This document shows, piece by piece, positions 5,888-40,233 of a DNA stretch of 40,233 bases. The first letter of the stretch is position 1. Each line of letters starts with the position of its first letter. The stretch lies in the sequence record MZ234021.1; one strand, given 5' to 3'. The notes under the pieces were generated by a model. The model saw nothing but the letters and a program-made list of their open reading frames with translations, was not told where the DNA came from and searched no databases. The DNA is from Escherichia phage vB_EcoP-101118UKE1. Position numbers and translations under genes: made by a program.

Positions 5888-6147
5888 CGCAGATGGACTT
5901 AGAGAAGTTCCTCTTGATGCTTGATACTGAACGTGCTCGACTCATGCTGCAAGACTTGCGGGATGACACTAAGCGTTCACCTCAGCTCTACAACGCCATT
6001 GAGAAGCTGCTTGCTCGTCACAACTTTGTGTTAAGCAAGGTGTCTGTGGACGAGAAGGCGCTGGCTGATATGGAGGCCCTGAACGCAGAGTACGATAAGG
6101 TTCTTTCAGCGACTGAGGATAATGACACCGGGTATGGTGTTCAATAA
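5884..6147 (+). CDS. Terminase small subunit (gp18-like)
   Basis: 87 aa; ATGA start/stop overlap with holin; size, position and RSPQLYNAI motif as in T7 gp18. Confidence 0.8.
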   Translation: MTQMDLEKFLLMLDTERARLMLQDLRDDTKRSPQLYNAIEKLLARHNFVLSKVSVDEKALADMEALNAEYDKVLSATEDNDTGYGVQ

Positions 6148-6158
6148 GTGTTAGACTC

Positions 6159-6185
6159 AAGGTCATTACTATATGTAGTGGCCTT
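6159..6185 (+). promoter_or_regulatory. Putative RNase III processing hairpin (R18.5-like)
   Basis: AAGGTCAT 6159-6166 pairs with GTGGCCTT 6178-6185 in RNA (G-U wobble allowed), upstream of Rz gene. Confidence 0.45.
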
Positions 6186-6248
6186 TATGGTTAACACACA
6201 CTACGGGCGGCGACGCTACGTGGATTCTGAGAAATGAGGAGGGCAACT

Positions 6249-6686: not shown

Positions 6687-7113
6687 TTACTACAAAGTGG
6701 ACCCGGCTAGTCCATCCGGTCTGGTCTCCGTTAGGACTGGAAAGCCTGTGGGGACATTAAGTCGGATGGGATATTGGATAGTACAGACACGAAGTCTAGG
6801 CAGTAAGCGGGCCCATCGTGTGATATGGGAACTAACCAATGGTCCTATACCGCATGGTATGCAAATAGACCACATCGACAGGAACCCTAGCAATAATACC
6901 TTAAGTAACTTACGGCTCGTTACTGCCGCTGAAAACACTTGGAATACTGGTAGCCATTATGACTCTAAGACAGGAGTGAAGTGCGTTACCCGTCACCAGA
7001 ATGGTTATAGGATTCAGGTTAAACGCGGGAATGCCTATATGCGAACAACACGTCCCACTTTAGAGGAGGCTATCGCTGTCCGGGACCTAATGCTGGAGGG
7101 ACTATATGTCTAA
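6676..7113 (+). CDS. HNH homing endonuclease
   Basis: GTG start with AAGGAGG RBS 6662-6668; motif [20 protein letters not shown] (HNH) followed by AP2-like C-terminal region; overlaps Rz end and terminase start. Confidence 0.85.
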
Positions 7114-8872
7114 GAAAACACCCGCTGAAAGACAGGCAGAAATGGTCCAAAGGATGAGGGACGACTTCGTGTTCTTCATCTTCGTTCTCTGGAAAGCACT
7201 AAGTCTTCCGGTTCCAACCCGCTGCCAGATAGATATGTGTAAGAAGCTGGCTGCTGGGGATAATCGCCGCTTCATCCTTCAGGCGTTCCGTGGTATTGGC
7301 AAGTCGTTTTTGACCTGTGGCTTTGTGGTCTGGAAGCTATGGAATAACCCAGACTTGAAGTTCATGATTGTGTCGGCCTCAAAGGAGCGAGCCGATGCTA
7401 ACTCCATCTTCATCAAGCGAATCATCGACCTCATGCCTCAGCTTCAGGAACTCAAACCTAAGCAGGGACAGCGAGATGCGGTTATTAGCTTCGACGTGGG
7501 ACCTGCCAAGCCAGACCACTCACCTTCGGTTAAGTCCGTTGGTATCACTGGTCAGTTGACTGGTAGTCGTGCTGACACCCTGATTGCCGATGACGTGGAG
7601 GTTCCGAACAACTCAGCGACTCAGGCTGCACGAGACCGTCTATCAGAGCTTGTGAAAGAGTTCGACGCTATCCTGAAGCCGGGAGGTACGATCATCTATC
7701 TGGGTACTCCTCAGAACGAGATGACCCTGTACCGTGAGCTGGAAGGTCGTGGGTACACCACTACTATCTGGCCCGCTCGTTATCCACGCGACAGGAAGGA
7801 CTGGCAGTCTTACGGCGACCGTCTGGCTCCTATGCTTCAGGCAGAGCTGGAAGAGGACCCTGAGTCCTTCTACTGGCGTCCGACTGATGAAGTACGCTTC
7901 GATGATACGGACCTGAAGGAACGTGAGCTGTCCTACGGTAAAGCTGGCTTCGCTCTACAGTTCATGCTTAACCCGAACCTGAGTGATGCCGAGAAGTACC
8001 CTCTGAAGCTCCGTGACCTTATCGTAGCCGACTTGGACCCAGCGTCCAGCCCAATGGTCTACCAATGGTTGCCGAACCCTCAGAACAAGCGTGAGGACGT
8101 TCCTAACGTTGGACTCATGGGTGACTCGTACCACACGTATCAGACTGTAGGTTCTGCCTTCAGCTCATACACCCAGAAGATTCTGGTCATTGACCCTAGT
8201 GGTCGTGGTAAGGATGAAACTGGATATGTGGTACTGTACCAGCTCAACGGCTACATCTTCGCTATGGAAGTTGGTGGCATGCGTGGTGGTTATGAAGACT
8301 CTACGCTGGAAGCCTTGGCTAAGATTGGTCGTAAGTGGAGGGTCAACGAATACGTCATTGAGGGTAACTTCGGTGATGGTATGTACCTTGAGCTATTCAA
8401 GCCTGTAGCGGCCCGTATCCATCCTGCGGCTGTAACTGAAGTGAAGAGTAAGGGTCAGAAAGAACTACGCATCTGTGACGTTCTGGAGCCTATCATGGGG
8501 TCTCACAGACTTATCGTTAACGCTGCTGCTATCGTCCAAGACTACCAGACAGCCTCTGACAAGGATGGTGTTCGTAACCCTATCTACTCTCTATTCTATC
8601 AGATGACACGTATCTCTCGTGAGCGTGGAGCCTTGGCACACGATGACCGACTTGATGCGCTGGCTATCGGTGTACAGTTCTTCGTTGAGTCGATGGCTAA
8701 GGATGCCAACAAAGGCGAACGTGAAGTAACTGAGGAATGGCTGGAGGAACAGATGGAGAACCCACGGAAAGGCTTCGAGTCCATCCACACTGAGTTCTGG
8801 GACAATGGGGTCCGGGTAACTCACGATACGGACGACGAGCTTGGACTAGGGTCATACGTTACGTTCCACTAG
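7106..8872 (+). CDS. Terminase large subunit (gp19)
   Basis: 588 aa, near-colinear with T7 gp19 ([13 protein letters not shown] Walker [34 protein letters not shown]). Confidence 0.97.
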
Positions 8873-8881
8873 CTGAATGAA

Positions 8882-8930
8882 TAACTATAGGTGAAAGCTG
8901 CATGAATAAGCAGTTAGTAACCTATAGTTA
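8882..8930 (+). repeat. 11-bp perfect inverted repeat immediately after terminase gene
   Basis: TAACTATAGGT 8882-8892 and ACCTATAGTTA 8920-8930, 27-nt spacer. Confidence 0.6.
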
Positions 8931-8966
8931 CTACCAGTCTAACATACTGTTTTACAAGGAGTTTGG

Positions 8967-8989
8967 ACTTAACTATCACTATAGGGAAG
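8967..8989 (+). promoter_or_regulatory. Phage RNAP promoter (phiOR-type, right genome end), +1 at 8984
   Basis: ACTTAACTATCACTATA/GGGAAG. Confidence 0.8.
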
Positions 8990-9169
8990 ACCCCCGGTTA
9001 CTTATAGTATTACTGTAGTGAATATACATATGCAGACTTTATGCAAGACCTTAGGAGGCAGACTCCGAGTTCTTACCTAAGGCTTGCACCGATGGAAGGA
9101 GGGTGATATTAATCATAATCCCTCCAATACAGATAGTCACCGACCATAGATACAGGAGGTATGTAGCAT

Positions 9170-9328
9170 ATGGCAAAGACCAAAGCTGTACTTAAAGCTC
9201 TGGCGACCAATCGAGCTACATACAGGTTTCTTGCTGCTGTTCTACTTGCTGCTGGCGTTACTGCTGGAAGTCAGTGGGTCGGGTGGGTCGAGACTCTCGT
9301 ATGTTCTCTGGTCTCTCAGTGTAATTAA
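9170..9328 (+). CDS. Small putative membrane protein (52 aa) in gp19.5 position
   Basis: AGGAGG RBS 9154-9159, ATG 9170, hydrophobic FLAAVLLAAGVTAG segment; not in the ORF track (<60 aa). Confidence 0.4.
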   Translation: MAKTKAVLKALATNRATYRFLAAVLLAAGVTAGSQWVGWVETLVCSLVSQCN

Positions 9329-9361
9329 CGCAATCATGGTAACGATTCATGAGCGGAAGAC

Positions 9362-9404
9362 CTAAGGTCAGTACGTGGATAAAGACTCACTATACTGACC
9401 TTAG
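9362..9404 (+). repeat. 12-bp perfect inverted repeat enclosing a T7-type promoter-like motif, ~170 bp before the terminal repeat
   Basis: CTAAGGTCAGTA 9362-9373 and TACTGACCTTAG 9393-9404; spacer contains AAAGACTCACTATA. Confidence 0.6.
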
Positions 9405-9499
9405 CTACTGTAGTCAAGGACTTTAGGTAACACCATTCAGGCTCTCACCTCTGGTCTACCTACTGATTGGTTCACTGGTCGTCATCCGATGGTCTTAGA

Positions 9500-9521
9500 C
9501 CTACGGTCCTTGACCTACAGT
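9500..9521 (+). repeat. Short CCTAC(A/G)GT repeats flanking the terminal repeat (right-end side)
   Basis: CCTACGGT 9500-9507 and CCTACAGT 9514-9521. Confidence 0.5.
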
Positions 9522-9574
9522 AGCTGGTTCCTAAGGAGGGACGATGAGTTTTGGACCAAAAGTTTGAGACCACA

Positions 9575-9755
9575 TCTCACAGTTCAAGAACCTCAAGTCT
9601 CCCCCATAGGCCCTCTTTCAGTCCAGACCAAAGGCCCTACCCCAGTCTATCATAAGGTTAGACCGATGGTCAAGACTTCAGGTCAACGATAGGTTGTGGC
9701 TATGGCTTAGGGAAGGACGATAGGTTGGGACTATGGGTCTGTCTCTGAGTCTCTA
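9575..9755 (+). repeat. Probable terminal repeat (single collapsed copy) containing the physical genome ends; boundaries approximate
   Basis: Begins TCTCACAG...CCCCCATAGG like the T7 left terminus; ends near GTCTCTGAGTCTCT followed by ATCTGTA (T7 has ATCTGTT concatemer-junction pause motif). Confidence 0.4.
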
Positions 9756-9770
9756 TCTGTATAACCATAG

Positions 9771-9861
9771 GTCCTACAACCTACAGTCCTACAACCTACA
9801 GTCTAACTAACCTACAGTATCAACCATAAGACACCAACACCTACGGTCATAGACCCACAGT
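9771..9861 (+). repeat. Array of CCTAC(A/G)GT-type direct repeats flanking the terminal repeat (left-end side), includes a 16-bp tandem duplication
   Basis: GTCCTACAACCTACAG twice in tandem (9771-9802), CCTACAGT 9811-9818, CCTACGGT 9840-9847, CCCACAGT 9854-9861; analogous to T7 CCTAAAG arrays. Confidence 0.6.
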
Positions 9862-9972
9862 TAATAGACACAAAGCTATAGACTTAAGGTCTTAAACATG
9901 TTAGTCAAAGACTATATCCTATTACACCATGGGGCCGACGATAGCTTAATCAATATTATTTAAGATTACCTA

Positions 9973-10002
9973 TTGACTACAGGTCCAGACTATGGCTTAA
10001 TA
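9973..10002 (+). promoter_or_regulatory. Putative host sigma70 early promoter (A1-like)
   Basis: TTGACT 9973-9978, 17-18 nt spacer, weak -10 (CTTAAT/TTAATA); aligns with T7 A1 region as I recall it. Confidence 0.4.
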
Positions 10003-10113
10003 GCTTCCGTCAACACGACACGGCAACAACCGGATAGTGAAGACGCCGGGTCATCCCGGTTAAGTAGACAGCCTGATAAGTCATACGAACAACAGGCAGA
10101 TGACAGAAAGTAG

Positions 10114-10143
10114 TTGACAAGATGTACCGACTTAAAGTAGTAT
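10114..10143 (+). promoter_or_regulatory. Putative host sigma70 early promoter (A2/A3-like)
   Basis: TTGACA 10114-10119, 18-nt spacer, TAGTAT 10138-10143; flanking sequence resembles T7 A3 region. Confidence 0.5.
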
Positions 10144-10272
10144 GTACCACATCAACACGAAACAACGGTGACGACCAACACTGAAACGGTCTACCTGAAG
10201 TCCTCTGACTGAAGGGAATGCTCTTTAACAATCTGGATAAACTCTTAATGTGCGCCGATAGCGACTAACTAC

Positions 10273-10302
10273 AGGGCCTTTGAGTCTACATCTGAAGGCC
10301 CT
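10273..10302 (+). promoter_or_regulatory. Putative RNase III processing hairpin (R0.3-like) before first early gene
   Basis: AGGGCCTT 10273-10280 / AAGGCCCT 10295-10302 perfect stem; followed by the GGCCCTGACTGATAGTCACTAAC box. Confidence 0.5.
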
Positions 10303-10335
10303 GACTGATAGTCACTAACTTAAAGGATGGACACT

Positions 10336-10581
10336 ATGAAACACTTAAGCACAATCACTAATCGCAATGAAGTATTCGTGAACACTAAAGGTTATGCGTG
10401 GATTCAGCTTAAAGAGATGACAGGAGCGCGTCACCGTGTGGTAGTTCGCAAGGTATCAAGCAAGCAGTTCAGCAACTACAGCGTCGATACTGTGCGTATA
10501 GACAACGAGACATACCTGATAGACTCGCAGATAACCGTGAGTCCTACAGTGGGCGTCTCAGCTCCTTATTTCGCTAACTGA
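10336..10581 (+). CDS. Hypothetical early protein (first gene after the early promoters)
   Basis: ORF 10327..10581; second ATG 10336 has better spacing from AAAGGATGG; preceded by an RNase III-type hairpin; no recognisable homolog. Confidence 0.5.
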   Translation: MKHLSTITNRNEVFVNTKGYAWIQLKEMTGARHRVVVRKVSSKQFSNYSVDTVRIDNETYLIDSQITVSPTVGVSAPYFAN

Positions 10582-15698: not shown

Positions 15699-15721
15699 CC
15701 TAAACTATCACTATAGGCTTA
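15699..15721 (+). promoter_or_regulatory. Phage RNAP promoter (phi1.1-type), +1 at 15716
   Basis: CCTAAACTATCACTATA/GGCTTA. Confidence 0.8.
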
Positions 15722-15726
15722 GACTC

Positions 15727-15753
15727 AAGGTCATGACTCAAAGTCGTGGCCTT
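15727..15753 (+). promoter_or_regulatory. Putative RNase III processing hairpin (R1.1-like) just after phi1.1-type promoter
   Basis: AAGGTCAT 15727-15734 / GTGGCCTT 15746-15753. Confidence 0.5.
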
Positions 15754-15794
15754 CATGATTAACCCTAAATAAACACTACTGGAGATTTAACCGT

Positions 15795-22637: not shown

Positions 22638-22802
22638 ATGCTACGAAAACTTAAAGCTCGCTACCATCGGTTCATGTACAAATGGTGGAGCGATGAAGCA
22701 ACCTTCCTGTCCAACATTCTGGGAGACCAGAGGTTCGACTCTAAGGCATGGAAGAAAGCTAACCGTAAGTTCATGTACCACTTCTTACGTACAGACTTCT
22801 AG
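22638..22802 (+). CDS. Hypothetical small protein (54 aa)
   Basis: AGAGGAGAG RBS 22622-22630; not in ORF track. Confidence 0.5.
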   Translation: MLRKLKARYHRFMYKWWSDEATFLSNILGDQRFDSKAWKKANRKFMYHFLRTDF

Positions 22803-22812
22803 GTCTAGACTC

Positions 22813-22837
22813 AAGGTCATTCACATAGAGTGGCCTT
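22813..22837 (+). promoter_or_regulatory. Putative RNase III processing hairpin after gene 4 region
   Basis: AAGGTCAT 22813-22820 / GTGGCCTT 22830-22837. Confidence 0.45.
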
Positions 22838-22865
22838 TATGATTAGACTAAACGGAGGATTAACC

Positions 22866-35809: not shown

Positions 35810-35859
35810 AAGGGCCTATAGATTTACCTTAACTATCACTATAGGGACTATAGGCCCTT
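35810..35859 (+). repeat. 12-bp perfect inverted repeat bracketing the phi13-type promoter
   Basis: AAGGGCCTATAG 35810-35821 and CTATAGGCCCTT 35848-35859. Confidence 0.6.
35827..35849 (+). promoter_or_regulatory. Phage RNAP promoter (phi13-type), +1 at 35844
   Basis: CCTTAACTATCACTATA/GGGACT, flanked by a 12-bp inverted repeat. Confidence 0.85.
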
Positions 35860-35878: not shown

Positions 35879-36349
35879 ATGTATATTCGCAAGGCTACGG
35901 AACAGGATGTCCACTACTTTCTGTGGCATCTTTCAGCAGATGATGTTAATGAGTGCAAAGCAAACTATGGGTCAACCGTTGGTCTCTCTGAAAGACTGCT
36001 TAAGCATCTATCTCCGTCATCTGTGGTTTTAACGAATGGTGTAGGCGAAGTGTTTGCCTATGGTGGAAACCAAGGGGATAACGTATGGTTCTTGACTTCC
36101 GGTCTTGTCCATAAGCTGAGACCTAAAGAGAAGCGGGAGTTCATAAAGCGTATCTCTGAGTACAGGGACTTAATGTTAGACCAATACGGGACCATCTGGA
36201 ACTACGTGTGGTCAGGCAATAAGTCTCACATTAAATTCTTGAAGTTGCTTGGGGCTAAATTCCATGATGATTGGACTGTCAGCCCGGTAACTGGTGAGCG
36301 TTTTCAATTATTCACTATCTCTAAGGAGGACGTATGTGTGAACCCGTAA
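35879..36349 (+). CDS. Internal virion protein gp13-like
   Basis: AAGGAG RBS; position downstream of phi13-type promoter. Confidence 0.7.
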   Translation: MYIRKATEQDVHYFLWHLSADDVNECKANYGSTVGLSERLLKHLSPSSVVLTNGVGEVFAYGGNQGDNVWFLTSGLVHKLRPKEKREFIKRISEYRDLMLDQYGTIWNYVWSGNKSHIKFLKLLGAKFHDDWTVSPVTGERFQLFTISKEDVCVNP

Positions 36350-39217: not shown

Positions 39218-39667
39218 ATGAAGAACGGGACAGCCAGTGAGAGACTGGCAGAACTGTCAGCAGGTGAAGAGTCTGGCTGTATCCGATTCACAGGCCACTT
39301 AGACGGAGAAGGATACGGAAGGATAATGGTCAACAGGGTCAAATACAGAGCGCATAGACTTGCTTACGAGCTTGCTAACGGTCCTATACCAGATGGGTAC
39401 GTTGTTCGCCATAAGTGCGACAACCCGTCCTGTATAAACCCAAGACACCTTGAAGTCGGTACCCAAGCTGATAACATAAAGGATAAGGTGACTAGAGGTC
39501 GCCAAGCGTTAGGATGCTTCATAGGATCGTCTAAGCTCACTGAGGAAAGTGTGCGTGATATAAGGTCCAGCAACCTAAAGGTTTCACTTTTGGCTGAACG
39601 CTATGGAGTGAGTACGGTTTCTATTAGAAATATCTTGAGGAGAAAGACATGGCGACACGTGGAGTAA
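39218..39667 (+). CDS. HNH homing endonuclease inserted between gp15 and gp16 (paralog of 22866..23267)
   Basis: TAAGGAG RBS; RHKCDNPSCINPRHLEVGTQADN motif; 3' end overlaps gp16 start. Confidence 0.85.
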   Translation: MKNGTASERLAELSAGEESGCIRFTGHLDGEGYGRIMVNRVKYRAHRLAYELANGPIPDGYVVRHKCDNPSCINPRHLEVGTQADNIKDKVTRGRQALGCFIGSSKLTEESVRDIRSSNLKVSLLAERYGVSTVSIRNILRRKTWRHVE

Positions 39668-40233
39668 GGAACTCAAACCCCGGGAACCTCCGTAAGTCCA
39701 AAGACCAATGGGAAGGTGCTATAGGGGATGATGGTGAATTCGTTATCTTCGACAGCCCTGAATCCGGGGTCCGAGCCTTAGCAAAAAACCTTCAAAGCTA
39801 CGGGCGCCAAGGCTATGACTCAATCGAGAAGATTATCAACCGTTGGGCACCTCCGAACGAGAACGACACTCAGTCCTACATCGACTCGGTTGTATCTGCG
39901 ACTGGTATTCCAGCCACACAGAGTCTCGACCTATCGGACCCTGACACCCTGTCTTCTCTGGCTCAAGCTATCAGCTTCCATGAGACAGGATCCCGGTACG
40001 ACCCAGAAGTCTATCAGAAGGGAGTCGCACGAGCACTCAATGGCATTAGCCCAAAGACTCCACCAGTAAGCGCTAACGTATTTGACGCACTCACGGAAGG
40101 ACTCAAGGCTAAACCTAAAGTAGCTCTGGGTGAGAACCTTCCGACCGCTGCTGGTATGAACATTGAGGGTCAAGCACCTGAAGCTCCCAACGAATCGTTC
40201 GGTGAGATGTTCTATAAGGCTACTGGCGAGACC
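39649..40233 (+). CDS. Internal virion (ejection) protein gp16, N-terminal 195 aa (partial; continues in frame at window position 1)
   Basis: GAGGAG RBS, ATG 39649, open to window end; last residues FYKATGET align with T7 gp16 FWETHGET just before the segment at 1..3303. Confidence 0.85.
   Translation, partial: MATRGVRNSNPGNLRKSKDQWEGAIGDDGEFVIFDSPESGVRALAKNLQSYGRQGYDSIEKIINRWAPPNENDTQSYIDSVVSATGIPATQSLDLSDPDTLSSLAQAISFHETGSRYDPEVYQKGVARALNGISPKTPPVSANVFDALTEGLKAKPKVALGENLPTAAGMNIEGQAPEAPNESFGEMFYKATGET

Follow-up and report, generated by a model that had tools for sequence, protein, structure and literature searches.

A conserved inverted repeat upstream of the terminal repeat in Kayfunavirus genomes as a probable member of the T7-group right-end DNA hairpins

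Near the right genome end of Escherichia phage vB_EcoP-101118UKE1 (sequence record MZ234021.1), a perfect inverted repeat encloses a sequence that resembles a T7 promoter. This raises the question of whether the element is a hairpin used in DNA processing and packaging or the remnant of a promoter of foreign specificity. In a concatemer, neighbouring genomes share one terminal repeat, yet both need a copy. How the second copy arises during concatemer cutting in T7-type phages has, to our knowledge, been unsettled since the hairpin-end model of 1990. We analysed the complete 40,233-bp sequence, referred to here as the window, which represents a circularly permuted Kayfunavirus genome (K1F-like, T7 supergroup).

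The segment 8850-10000 is 90-96% identical to many Kayfunavirus records, and the sequence TCTCACAG at 9575 coincides with the annotated start of the terminal repeat in EcoDS1, CR44b and SH3 (Table 1). The inverted repeat is intergenic. It starts 34 nt past the stop codon of the gene 19.5 homolog, the product of which is 33% identical to T7 gp19.5 (E = 2e-5), and its right arm ends 171 bp before the terminal repeat, close to the distance of about 170 bp given in an earlier note on this DNA. The phage's own promoter core, CTATCACTATAGG, occurs in nine perfect copies in the window versus approximately one expected, and transcripts of the phiOR type run rightward through gene 19.5 and the hairpin. 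The order of elements at the right end is gene 19.5, a first hairpin (at about -190 bp), a conserved block, a second hairpin (at about -110 bp), the terminal repeat and an ATCTGT pause-type signal; judged by sequence, this layout is collinear across the T7 and Kayfunavirus genera. Further upstream, between the terminase stop codon and the phiOR-type promoter, lies a perfect 11-bp inverted repeat (TAACTATAGGT / ACCTATAGTTA, 8882-8892 / 8920-8930). Each of its arms contains the promoter-core-like sequence ACTATAGG, in opposite orientations, and K1F has the same repeat.

Table 1. Right-end features and RNase III sites of the window (coordinates are window positions)
Feature	Position	Strand	Remarks
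Large terminase gene	7106-8872		
Own promoter, phiOR equivalent (ACTTAACTATCACTATAGGGAAG)	8967-8989	+	Core at 8973; annotated phiOR in EcoDS1
Gene 19.5 homolog, 52 aa, membrane-type	9170-9328	+	Annotated 19.5 in CR44b, EcoDS1 and LS2
Hairpin element	9362-9404		First of two right-end inverted repeats
Left arm CTAAGGTCAGTA	9362-9373		First bases belong to one copy of the short repeat ACCTANRGT
Spacer, allele A: C / GTG / GATAAAGACT / CAC / TA	9374-9392		
Right arm TACTGACCTTAG	9393-9404		
Second, long inverted repeat	9403-9525		9403-9428 pairs with 9499-9525; ~27 bp, 2 mismatches, 70-nt loop
Conserved block CTACTGTAGTCAAGG	9405-9419		Directly 3' of hairpin; counterparts CTATAGAGTCAAG in T7 and CTGTAGAGTCAAC in T3
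Terminal repeat, single collapsed copy, ~180 bp	9575-9754		Right boundary uncertain by a few nt
ATCTGTA	9755-9761	+	Directly after terminal repeat; conserved in relatives as CTATCTGTAT, with divergence right after
Canonical T7-type RNase III sites	6147-6200, 15715-15768, 22801-22852		Sites at 6159, 15727 and 22813

The two 12-nt arms are 100% complementary and separated by 19 nt, exactly as the earlier note had described them. The arm length of 12 bp holds for two of the three spacer alleles found in the genus (A and C, see below); in allele B, present in K1F and others, the perfect stem is 11 bp. Within the spacer of the window, GTG (9375-9377) pairs with CAC (9388-9390), and the resulting hairpin has a 12-bp lower stem, a small internal loop, a 3-bp upper stem and a 10-nt apical loop, with its centre 192 bp before the terminal repeat. 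The calculated DNA folding energy is -11.5 kcal/mol (z = -5.9) for the top strand and -12.2 kcal/mol for the bottom strand. The window contains two inverted repeats with perfect arms of 12 bp or more and a spacer of 3-40 nt, versus 0.097 expected, and 7% of 300 dinucleotide shuffles hold at least one. Such statistics alone are only suggestive; it is conservation that is decisive for the reality of the palindrome. The other repeat of this class (AAGGGCCTATAG / CTATAGGCCCTT, 35810-35859, 26-nt spacer) sits between the end of a 785-aa ORF (35802) and an ORF start at 35879, and encloses a genuine promoter of the phage (CTATCACTATAGG at 35833). Transcripts initiated there would carry the right arm only, and read-through transcripts the full hairpin.

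To follow the element through the genus, we sampled 30 other Kayfunavirus sequences over the whole similarity range, without using the arms as a criterion. The sequence ACCTAAGGTCAGT...ACTGACCTTAG is identical in each of them, so that the comparison of right ends that the earlier note had proposed returns identical palindrome arms in 31 of 31 sequences. Identity over the right arm and the next 28 nt reaches at least 99% in 171 of 219 database records, whereas over the surrounding 246-nt region it is just 60-80% in 121 of 221 records. The conserved block sets in sharply at AAGACCTAAGG; the upstream flank and the spacer are variable. Three unrelated spacer alleles exist: A (ACGTGGATAAAGACTCACTCT), B (TCATAGCTGACGCTACTCT) and C (ACGTGGGATAAACCCTCCACTCT). 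Among 29 relatives, 13 carry B (K1F and 12 others), 11 an A-type and five a C-type spacer. The upper stems differ in sequence from allele to allele (GTG/CAC, TAGC/GCTA and GTGG/CCAC), but the architecture is the same: all alleles, whether folded as DNA or as RNA (z of about -5), form an 11-12-bp lower stem, a 1x2 or 3x4 internal loop, a 3-5-bp upper stem and an apical loop. The gap between the 11-nt arm cores measures 19, 21, 22 or 23 nt. Because the arm spacing varies and different spacer sequences give one fold, a hairpin is favoured over a duplex site for a dimer with fixed spacing. The lower stem itself is invariant within Kayfunavirus and hence offers no covariation for the stem of the window; by itself, this invariance could equally mean a protein-binding sequence on duplex DNA.

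Spacer alleles and upstream flanks have been shuffled against each other: one sequence of the 19.5 end occurs with A or B, another with B or C (K1F, L002; Pipis, L098; GA2A, L096; and L097, L099 and L093-L095, compared with window positions 9329-9361). In several relatives, gene 19.5 and the hairpin are separated by an additional small ORF or by unrelated sequence. The shuffling and the extra upstream sequence suggest that the left edge of the hairpin is a recombination or insertion boundary.

We searched for counterparts outside the genus by anchoring on the terminase gene and scanning 73 terminase-anchored loci for perfect stems and motifs. Hairpins lie right after gene 19.5 in T7 (39,567-39,611), T3, Vibrio phage N4 (L013), the uncultured phages L016, L024, L025 and L041, and contigs L010-L014. 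Across the 73 loci this hairpin type is found in some lineages only: L015, L017, L018, L019 and L020 have no clear counterpart, and some of the loci stop short of the relevant region. A BLAST search with the L024 and L041 regions gave no match among cultured phages. Across lineages, the stems are unrelated in sequence yet paired. L024 and L025 share an identical loop, with stems that differ at four or more positions, and the T7 and T3 hairpins are related by four compensatory pair changes. In a MAFFT alignment, the hairpins of T7, T3 and Kayfunavirus fall into the same columns, and a shared block, CTRTAG(AG)TCAA, comes next.

Covariation supports the pairing in related lineages. As MAFFT put the stems out of register when hairpins were aligned across lineages, that alignment was not used for model building. 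To obtain an unbiased count, IMG/VR was scanned with the inner core only, which yielded ten distinct hairpins with eight different outer stems. The unconstrained 7-bp outer stem of these ten is 100% Watson-Crick paired; five of its seven pairs change on both sides, and no pair changes on one side alone. Shuffles give a covariation score of 0.081, compared with 0.356 for the real stems, a value that 0 of 500 shuffles reach, and slid controls show 25-40% pairing. A covariance model of this type (R1; L010/L012/L014/L152-L168), comprising the outer 7-bp stem, a TTC/TC internal loop and a GG.A...T.CC inner stem, recovers the independent lineage L024 (E = 0.002). At E <= 10 it finds no match in the window, K1F, EcoDS1, GA2A, T7 or N4. 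Since there is no significant model score, the kinship of the Kayfunavirus hairpin with the others rests on its position, its architecture, a short motif common to the hairpins (GTA-(T)CGT...CAC(T)C-TAC) and the co-alignment with T7 and T3.

The position is closely kept. Measured from the hairpin centre, the terminal repeat starts 190 bp away in T7 and 184 bp away in T3, both within 8 bp of the distance in the window. Of 30 Kayfunavirus genomes, 23 fall in the range 181-194 bp; the remaining seven measure 153-160 bp and carry deletions farther downstream. N4 stands outside this comparison, its record being circular and having no second repeat copy. The 190 bp measured for T7 agrees with the position of the T7 hairpin end, which we take to be about 190 bp left of the junction.

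T7 has an m element or M-hairpin (Chung, Nardone & Hinkle 1990; Kim & Chung 1996; Kim, Kim & Chung 1997), which according to PMC2680503 adjoins gene 19.5; its place is on the side of that gene facing the right terminal repeat. It is most likely the T7 counterpart of the element studied here. Both it and the window sequence are inverted repeats that can fold into a DNA hairpin, and the T7 candidate at 39,567-39,611 has its centre 190 bp before the repeat, compared with 192 bp in the window, with CTRTAG(AG)TCAA following both. The two differ in build: T7 and T3 have an interrupted 15-bp helix (6+2+3+4), Kayfunavirus a perfect 11-12-bp stem derived from a local short repeat, with a loop that comes in three alleles. 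There is also no significant sequence or covariance-model match between them. The earlier note had offered a packaging or processing hairpin as one reading, and this reading gains support from the genus-wide conservation, the T7 and T3 counterparts at the same distance, the covariation in related lineages, the DNA-like behaviour discussed below and the M-hairpin literature. We infer, with a probability of roughly 0.6, that the inverted repeat is the Kayfunavirus form of the T7-group right-end DNA hairpin and acts in concatemer maturation as a fold-back.

A second, long inverted repeat begins where the first hairpin ends. Its centre lies 111 bp before the terminal repeat in the window, 110.5 bp in T7, where the repeat occupies about 39,650-39,690, and about 115 bp in T3. 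Of 31 Kayfunavirus sequences, 27 retain the long-range pairing; EcoDS1 and ST11 have it in weakened form, and L008 and PDP21P1 have lost it. In about half of the relatives, the right arm (CAGTGGCT) has a G in place of A, so that the top strand forms a G.T pair there. Given its place about 110 bp before the terminal repeat in T7, T3 and Kayfunavirus, this second repeat could be the M-hairpin instead. Beyond the terminal repeat, the ATCTGTA of the window has its counterpart in the only ATCTGTT of T7, at nt 161, directly after the 160-bp T7 repeat. We take the T7 heptamer to be the concatemer-junction pause signal for T7 RNA polymerase, and ATCTGTA is probably such a signal for the polymerase of this phage.

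The right-end DNA hairpin has to be weighed against a palindromic site that is read as duplex DNA. Here, the arms would be inverted copies of a short right-end repeat (ACCTAAGGT...) bound by a packaging protein, for example the small terminase subunit, within a pac signal, and no hairpin would form. The invariance of the 11-12-bp arms in 31 of 31 sequences, free of compensatory variation, fits such a site, as does the 215-bp stretch up to the terminal repeat, which consists of near-invariant blocks as expected of packaging signals. The left arm moreover opens with a copy of ACCTANRGT, a repeat clustered around the terminal repeat: 8 of 12 forward and 3 of 6 reverse genome copies fall within 8920-9840, on both sides of the terminal repeat, with one starting at 9360. 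This clustering resembles the short repeats that flank the terminal repeat of T7. Three observations speak for structure. Arm spacings of 19, 21, 22 or 23 nt would rotate the half-sites relative to each other; duplex binding leaves the extra stem that each spacer allele brings with it unexplained; and the stems of other lineages differ fully yet stay perfectly paired, which means that structure is conserved and not sequence. A duplex site as the sole explanation is thus possible but unlikely. Recognition of the duplex is at the same time compatible with the hairpin model, as a nicking enzyme may read the stem sequence.

If the hairpin forms, it could do so in DNA or in RNA. With DNA parameters, the bottom strand of all 19 right-end hairpins compared folds better than the top strand, the difference reaching 3.9 kcal/mol, and in T7 and the L154 type, A.C mismatches on the top strand are G.T pairs on the bottom strand. 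Known RNA elements behave in the opposite way, 11 of 13 (RNase III sites, Tphi) favouring the top strand. The bias is modest for the Kayfunavirus alleles, at -0.7 to -2.2 kcal/mol, and stems from loop terms. All transcription in these phages is rightward. Because the bottom strand is favoured and no RNA of bottom-strand sense is made, the folding calculations indicate that the structure is most likely selected at the DNA level.

This bears on a further alternative, an RNA stem-loop 3' of the phiOR-gene 19.5 transcript that would serve as a processing site or as a barrier to 3' exonucleases, stabilizing late mRNA. The sequence is indeed transcribed rightward from the promoter at 8973, lies 34 nt past the 19.5 stop codon and folds strongly as RNA (-20.5 kcal/mol, z = -5.7). 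The details of the pairing nevertheless point away from RNA: no stem contains a G.U pair, the covarying stems show no one-sided changes, and where mismatches are conserved, the transcript-sense strand has A.C and the complementary strand G.T, the reverse of what the RNA controls show. The element also lacks an RNase III consensus and a U-run after the stem, and an Rfam scan of 8500-10500 gave no match at E <= 1. We regard an RNA function as distinctly unlikely.

The element also falls outside two specific RNA classes. The element shares with T7-group RNase III sites (R0.5, R1.1, R1.3 and others) an irregular hairpin, an AAGG...CCTT stem and a location in transcribed intergenic sequence. The canonical sites of the window are near-identical in consensus to those of T7, for which we assumed the coordinates given by Dunn & Studier 1983, and have the consensus GACTCAAGGTCAT...GTGGCCTT(T/C)ATGATT with a conserved U.G wobble. 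The hairpin at 9362 has neither the wobble nor the consensus GACTCAAGGTC...GTGGCCTT(T/C)ATGATT (GACTCAAGGTC...GTGGCCTTTATGATT in its short form), and its strand preference is opposite, with the bottom strand favoured; it is not an RNase III site of this group. Nor is it an intrinsic or class I terminator, as the right arm is followed by CTACTGTAG with no T/U run, and a terminator scan finds none at the hairpin. A primase site was also considered: 5'-GTC is present on the bottom-strand loop in L024 and L025, the L154 type and Kayfunavirus alleles A and B; T7, T3, N4 and allele C lack it, and this candidate was rejected.

There remains the promoter resemblance that first drew attention to the spacer. 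The earlier note was right about the likeness and about the start site: GACTCACTATA at 9384-9394 agrees with T7 promoter positions -11 to -1 at every base, and the next base is C rather than G, with CT instead of GG at +1/+2. Its further suggestion of a decayed heterologous T7-type promoter is not supported. Relative to the T7 class III promoter (TAATACGACTCACTATAGGGAGA), with which the window shares this exact 11-nt core, the AT-rich upstream part departs at -17, -15, -14 and -12, and the complete 23-mer (-17 to +6) agrees with the T7 consensus at 15 of 23 positions. The polymerase of this phage uses CTATCACTATAGG; on a matrix built from the ten promoters of the window, the site scores -0.4 bits, as opposed to 33-37 bits for real promoters. 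The T7-like 11-mer hangs on one base, the A at 9391, and is not conserved in relatives: CACTATA occurs in two of 30 genomes (the window and 22664BS1), the other A-type spacers read CACTCTA or CACTGTA, and 13 of 30 genomes have an unrelated spacer. In the MAFFT alignment of T7, T3 and Kayfunavirus right ends, TCACTATAC of the window falls over TTCACTACAC of T3, the 3' half of the T3 hairpin. As the CACTA motif thus aligns with the 3' stem half of both the T3 and T7 hairpins, the promoter look can be rationalized as the product of an inherited hairpin segment and one variant base.

A decayed or heterologous promoter of T7 specificity, or a pseudo-promoter that binds a phage RNA polymerase within the palindrome, is therefore very improbable, even though several findings lean towards it. 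Besides the exact core, the site ranks 27th of 80,422 23-mers on the own-promoter matrix, the second perfect 12-bp palindrome of the window encloses a real promoter, the hairpin loops of other lineages hold ...CACT..TA-like cores, and the L024/L025 loop with its closing pair is identical to a probable real promoter core in other contigs. Against these stand the low score, the missing GG and the lack of conservation, as well as the absence of any gene between the site and the genome end. A single additional TCACTATA in 80 kb, both strands counted, is at chance level (about 1.2 expected by calculation), and a 3-nt match to one of several famous promoters is approximately a 1-in-16 event.

Other promoter-like matches in these sequences were noted as well. 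Reading allele C as a T3 promoter and allele B as an SP6 promoter needs indels or mismatches, and we judged both to be within chance. A leftward sigma-70-like match (TTGACT-17-TATAGT, 9417 to 9389, minus strand, 10/12) runs over the GTCAAG block and the spacer; the region has three sigma-70-like sites versus 1.6 expected, and the -10 box of the 9389-9417 match needs the rare A at 9391. The 14-mer TCGTTGACACTCTA, which forms the loop and closing pair of the L024 and L025 hairpins, has 48 matches in IMG/VR, of which just the two known contigs (L024/L025) have stems; the remaining matches are unrelated contexts or probable promoters. It recurs in the context ...GGATATGG-TCGTTGACACTCTA-GTA... (L109, L112, L114, L122, L132, L145 and L147-L149), which from its sequence looks like the promoter of an uncultured phage group with SP6-like polymerase specificity.

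That the palindrome is a functionless product of chance can be practically dismissed: perfect repeats of this kind do turn up in the 7% of shuffled windows given above, but the arms are invariant over 31 genomes and about 219 records while the flanks diverge, and counterparts sit at the same distance in T7 and T3.

How could a right-end DNA hairpin of this type contribute to concatemer maturation? In the mechanism we propose, the bottom strand, which runs 5' to 3' leftward, would be nicked at or near the left edge of the repeat. Its 3' end would then snap back through the inverted repeat and prime rightward synthesis over the 171-bp unique segment and the terminal repeat, displacing the top strand. 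A second repeat copy would thereby be made, so that each of two neighbouring genomes receives one, the first at its right end and the second at its left. The strand bias fits this model, because only a fold-back of the bottom strand points its 3' end toward the terminal repeat. As a variant, the palindrome might extrude as a cruciform and be resolved by the junction-resolving endonuclease of the phage. The invariant lower stem probably also carries sequence that is read by nicking or packaging proteins, and the loop would be free to vary as long as the small upper stem is kept.

According to PMC2680503, a T7 deletion of 19.5 and the hairpin is viable, with late lysis and small plaques (Kim & Chung 1996), and much of the effect may be due to the hairpin, with defects in concatemer processing (Kim et al. 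1997). By analogy, the element probably improves the efficiency of processing and is not absolutely essential. In principle only, the scheme is similar to the rolling-hairpin replication of parvoviruses and to poxvirus telomeres, where the 3' end of a folded strand primes the copying of adjacent sequence. The hairpin considered here, in contrast, would be internal to the concatemer and transient, and would duplicate a direct terminal repeat rather than keep a hairpin telomere; no homology is implied.

The loop may be more than a passive spacer. Since three discrete loop alleles sit on an invariant stem and are shuffled against the flanks, one can imagine an exchangeable recognition cassette that recruits the phage RNA polymerase (its own or that of a co-infecting phage), gp19.5 or the terminase. 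The loops of several lineages contain a promoter-like core (...CACT..TA) that lacks a G start and whose specificity region differs from that of the phage's own promoters. We consider this idea speculative and quite improbable; if true, polymerase binding would be coupled to the duplication of the terminal repeat, and concatemer processing would be allele-specific.

A hairpin of this kind is already known in T7, and the Kayfunavirus element is probably an additional member. For annotation, it carries the warning that promoter-like strings in the right-end region should not be called promoters, and the hairpin layout helps to place the true genome ends in permuted Kayfunavirus assemblies. The fold-back model makes a strand-specific prediction, a bottom-strand 3' end at the left edge of the repeat. 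What started as one palindrome thus becomes a defined and conserved right-end layout, with precise targets for mutation (the arms, compensatory arms and loop swaps) in T7, T3 and K1F-type phages.
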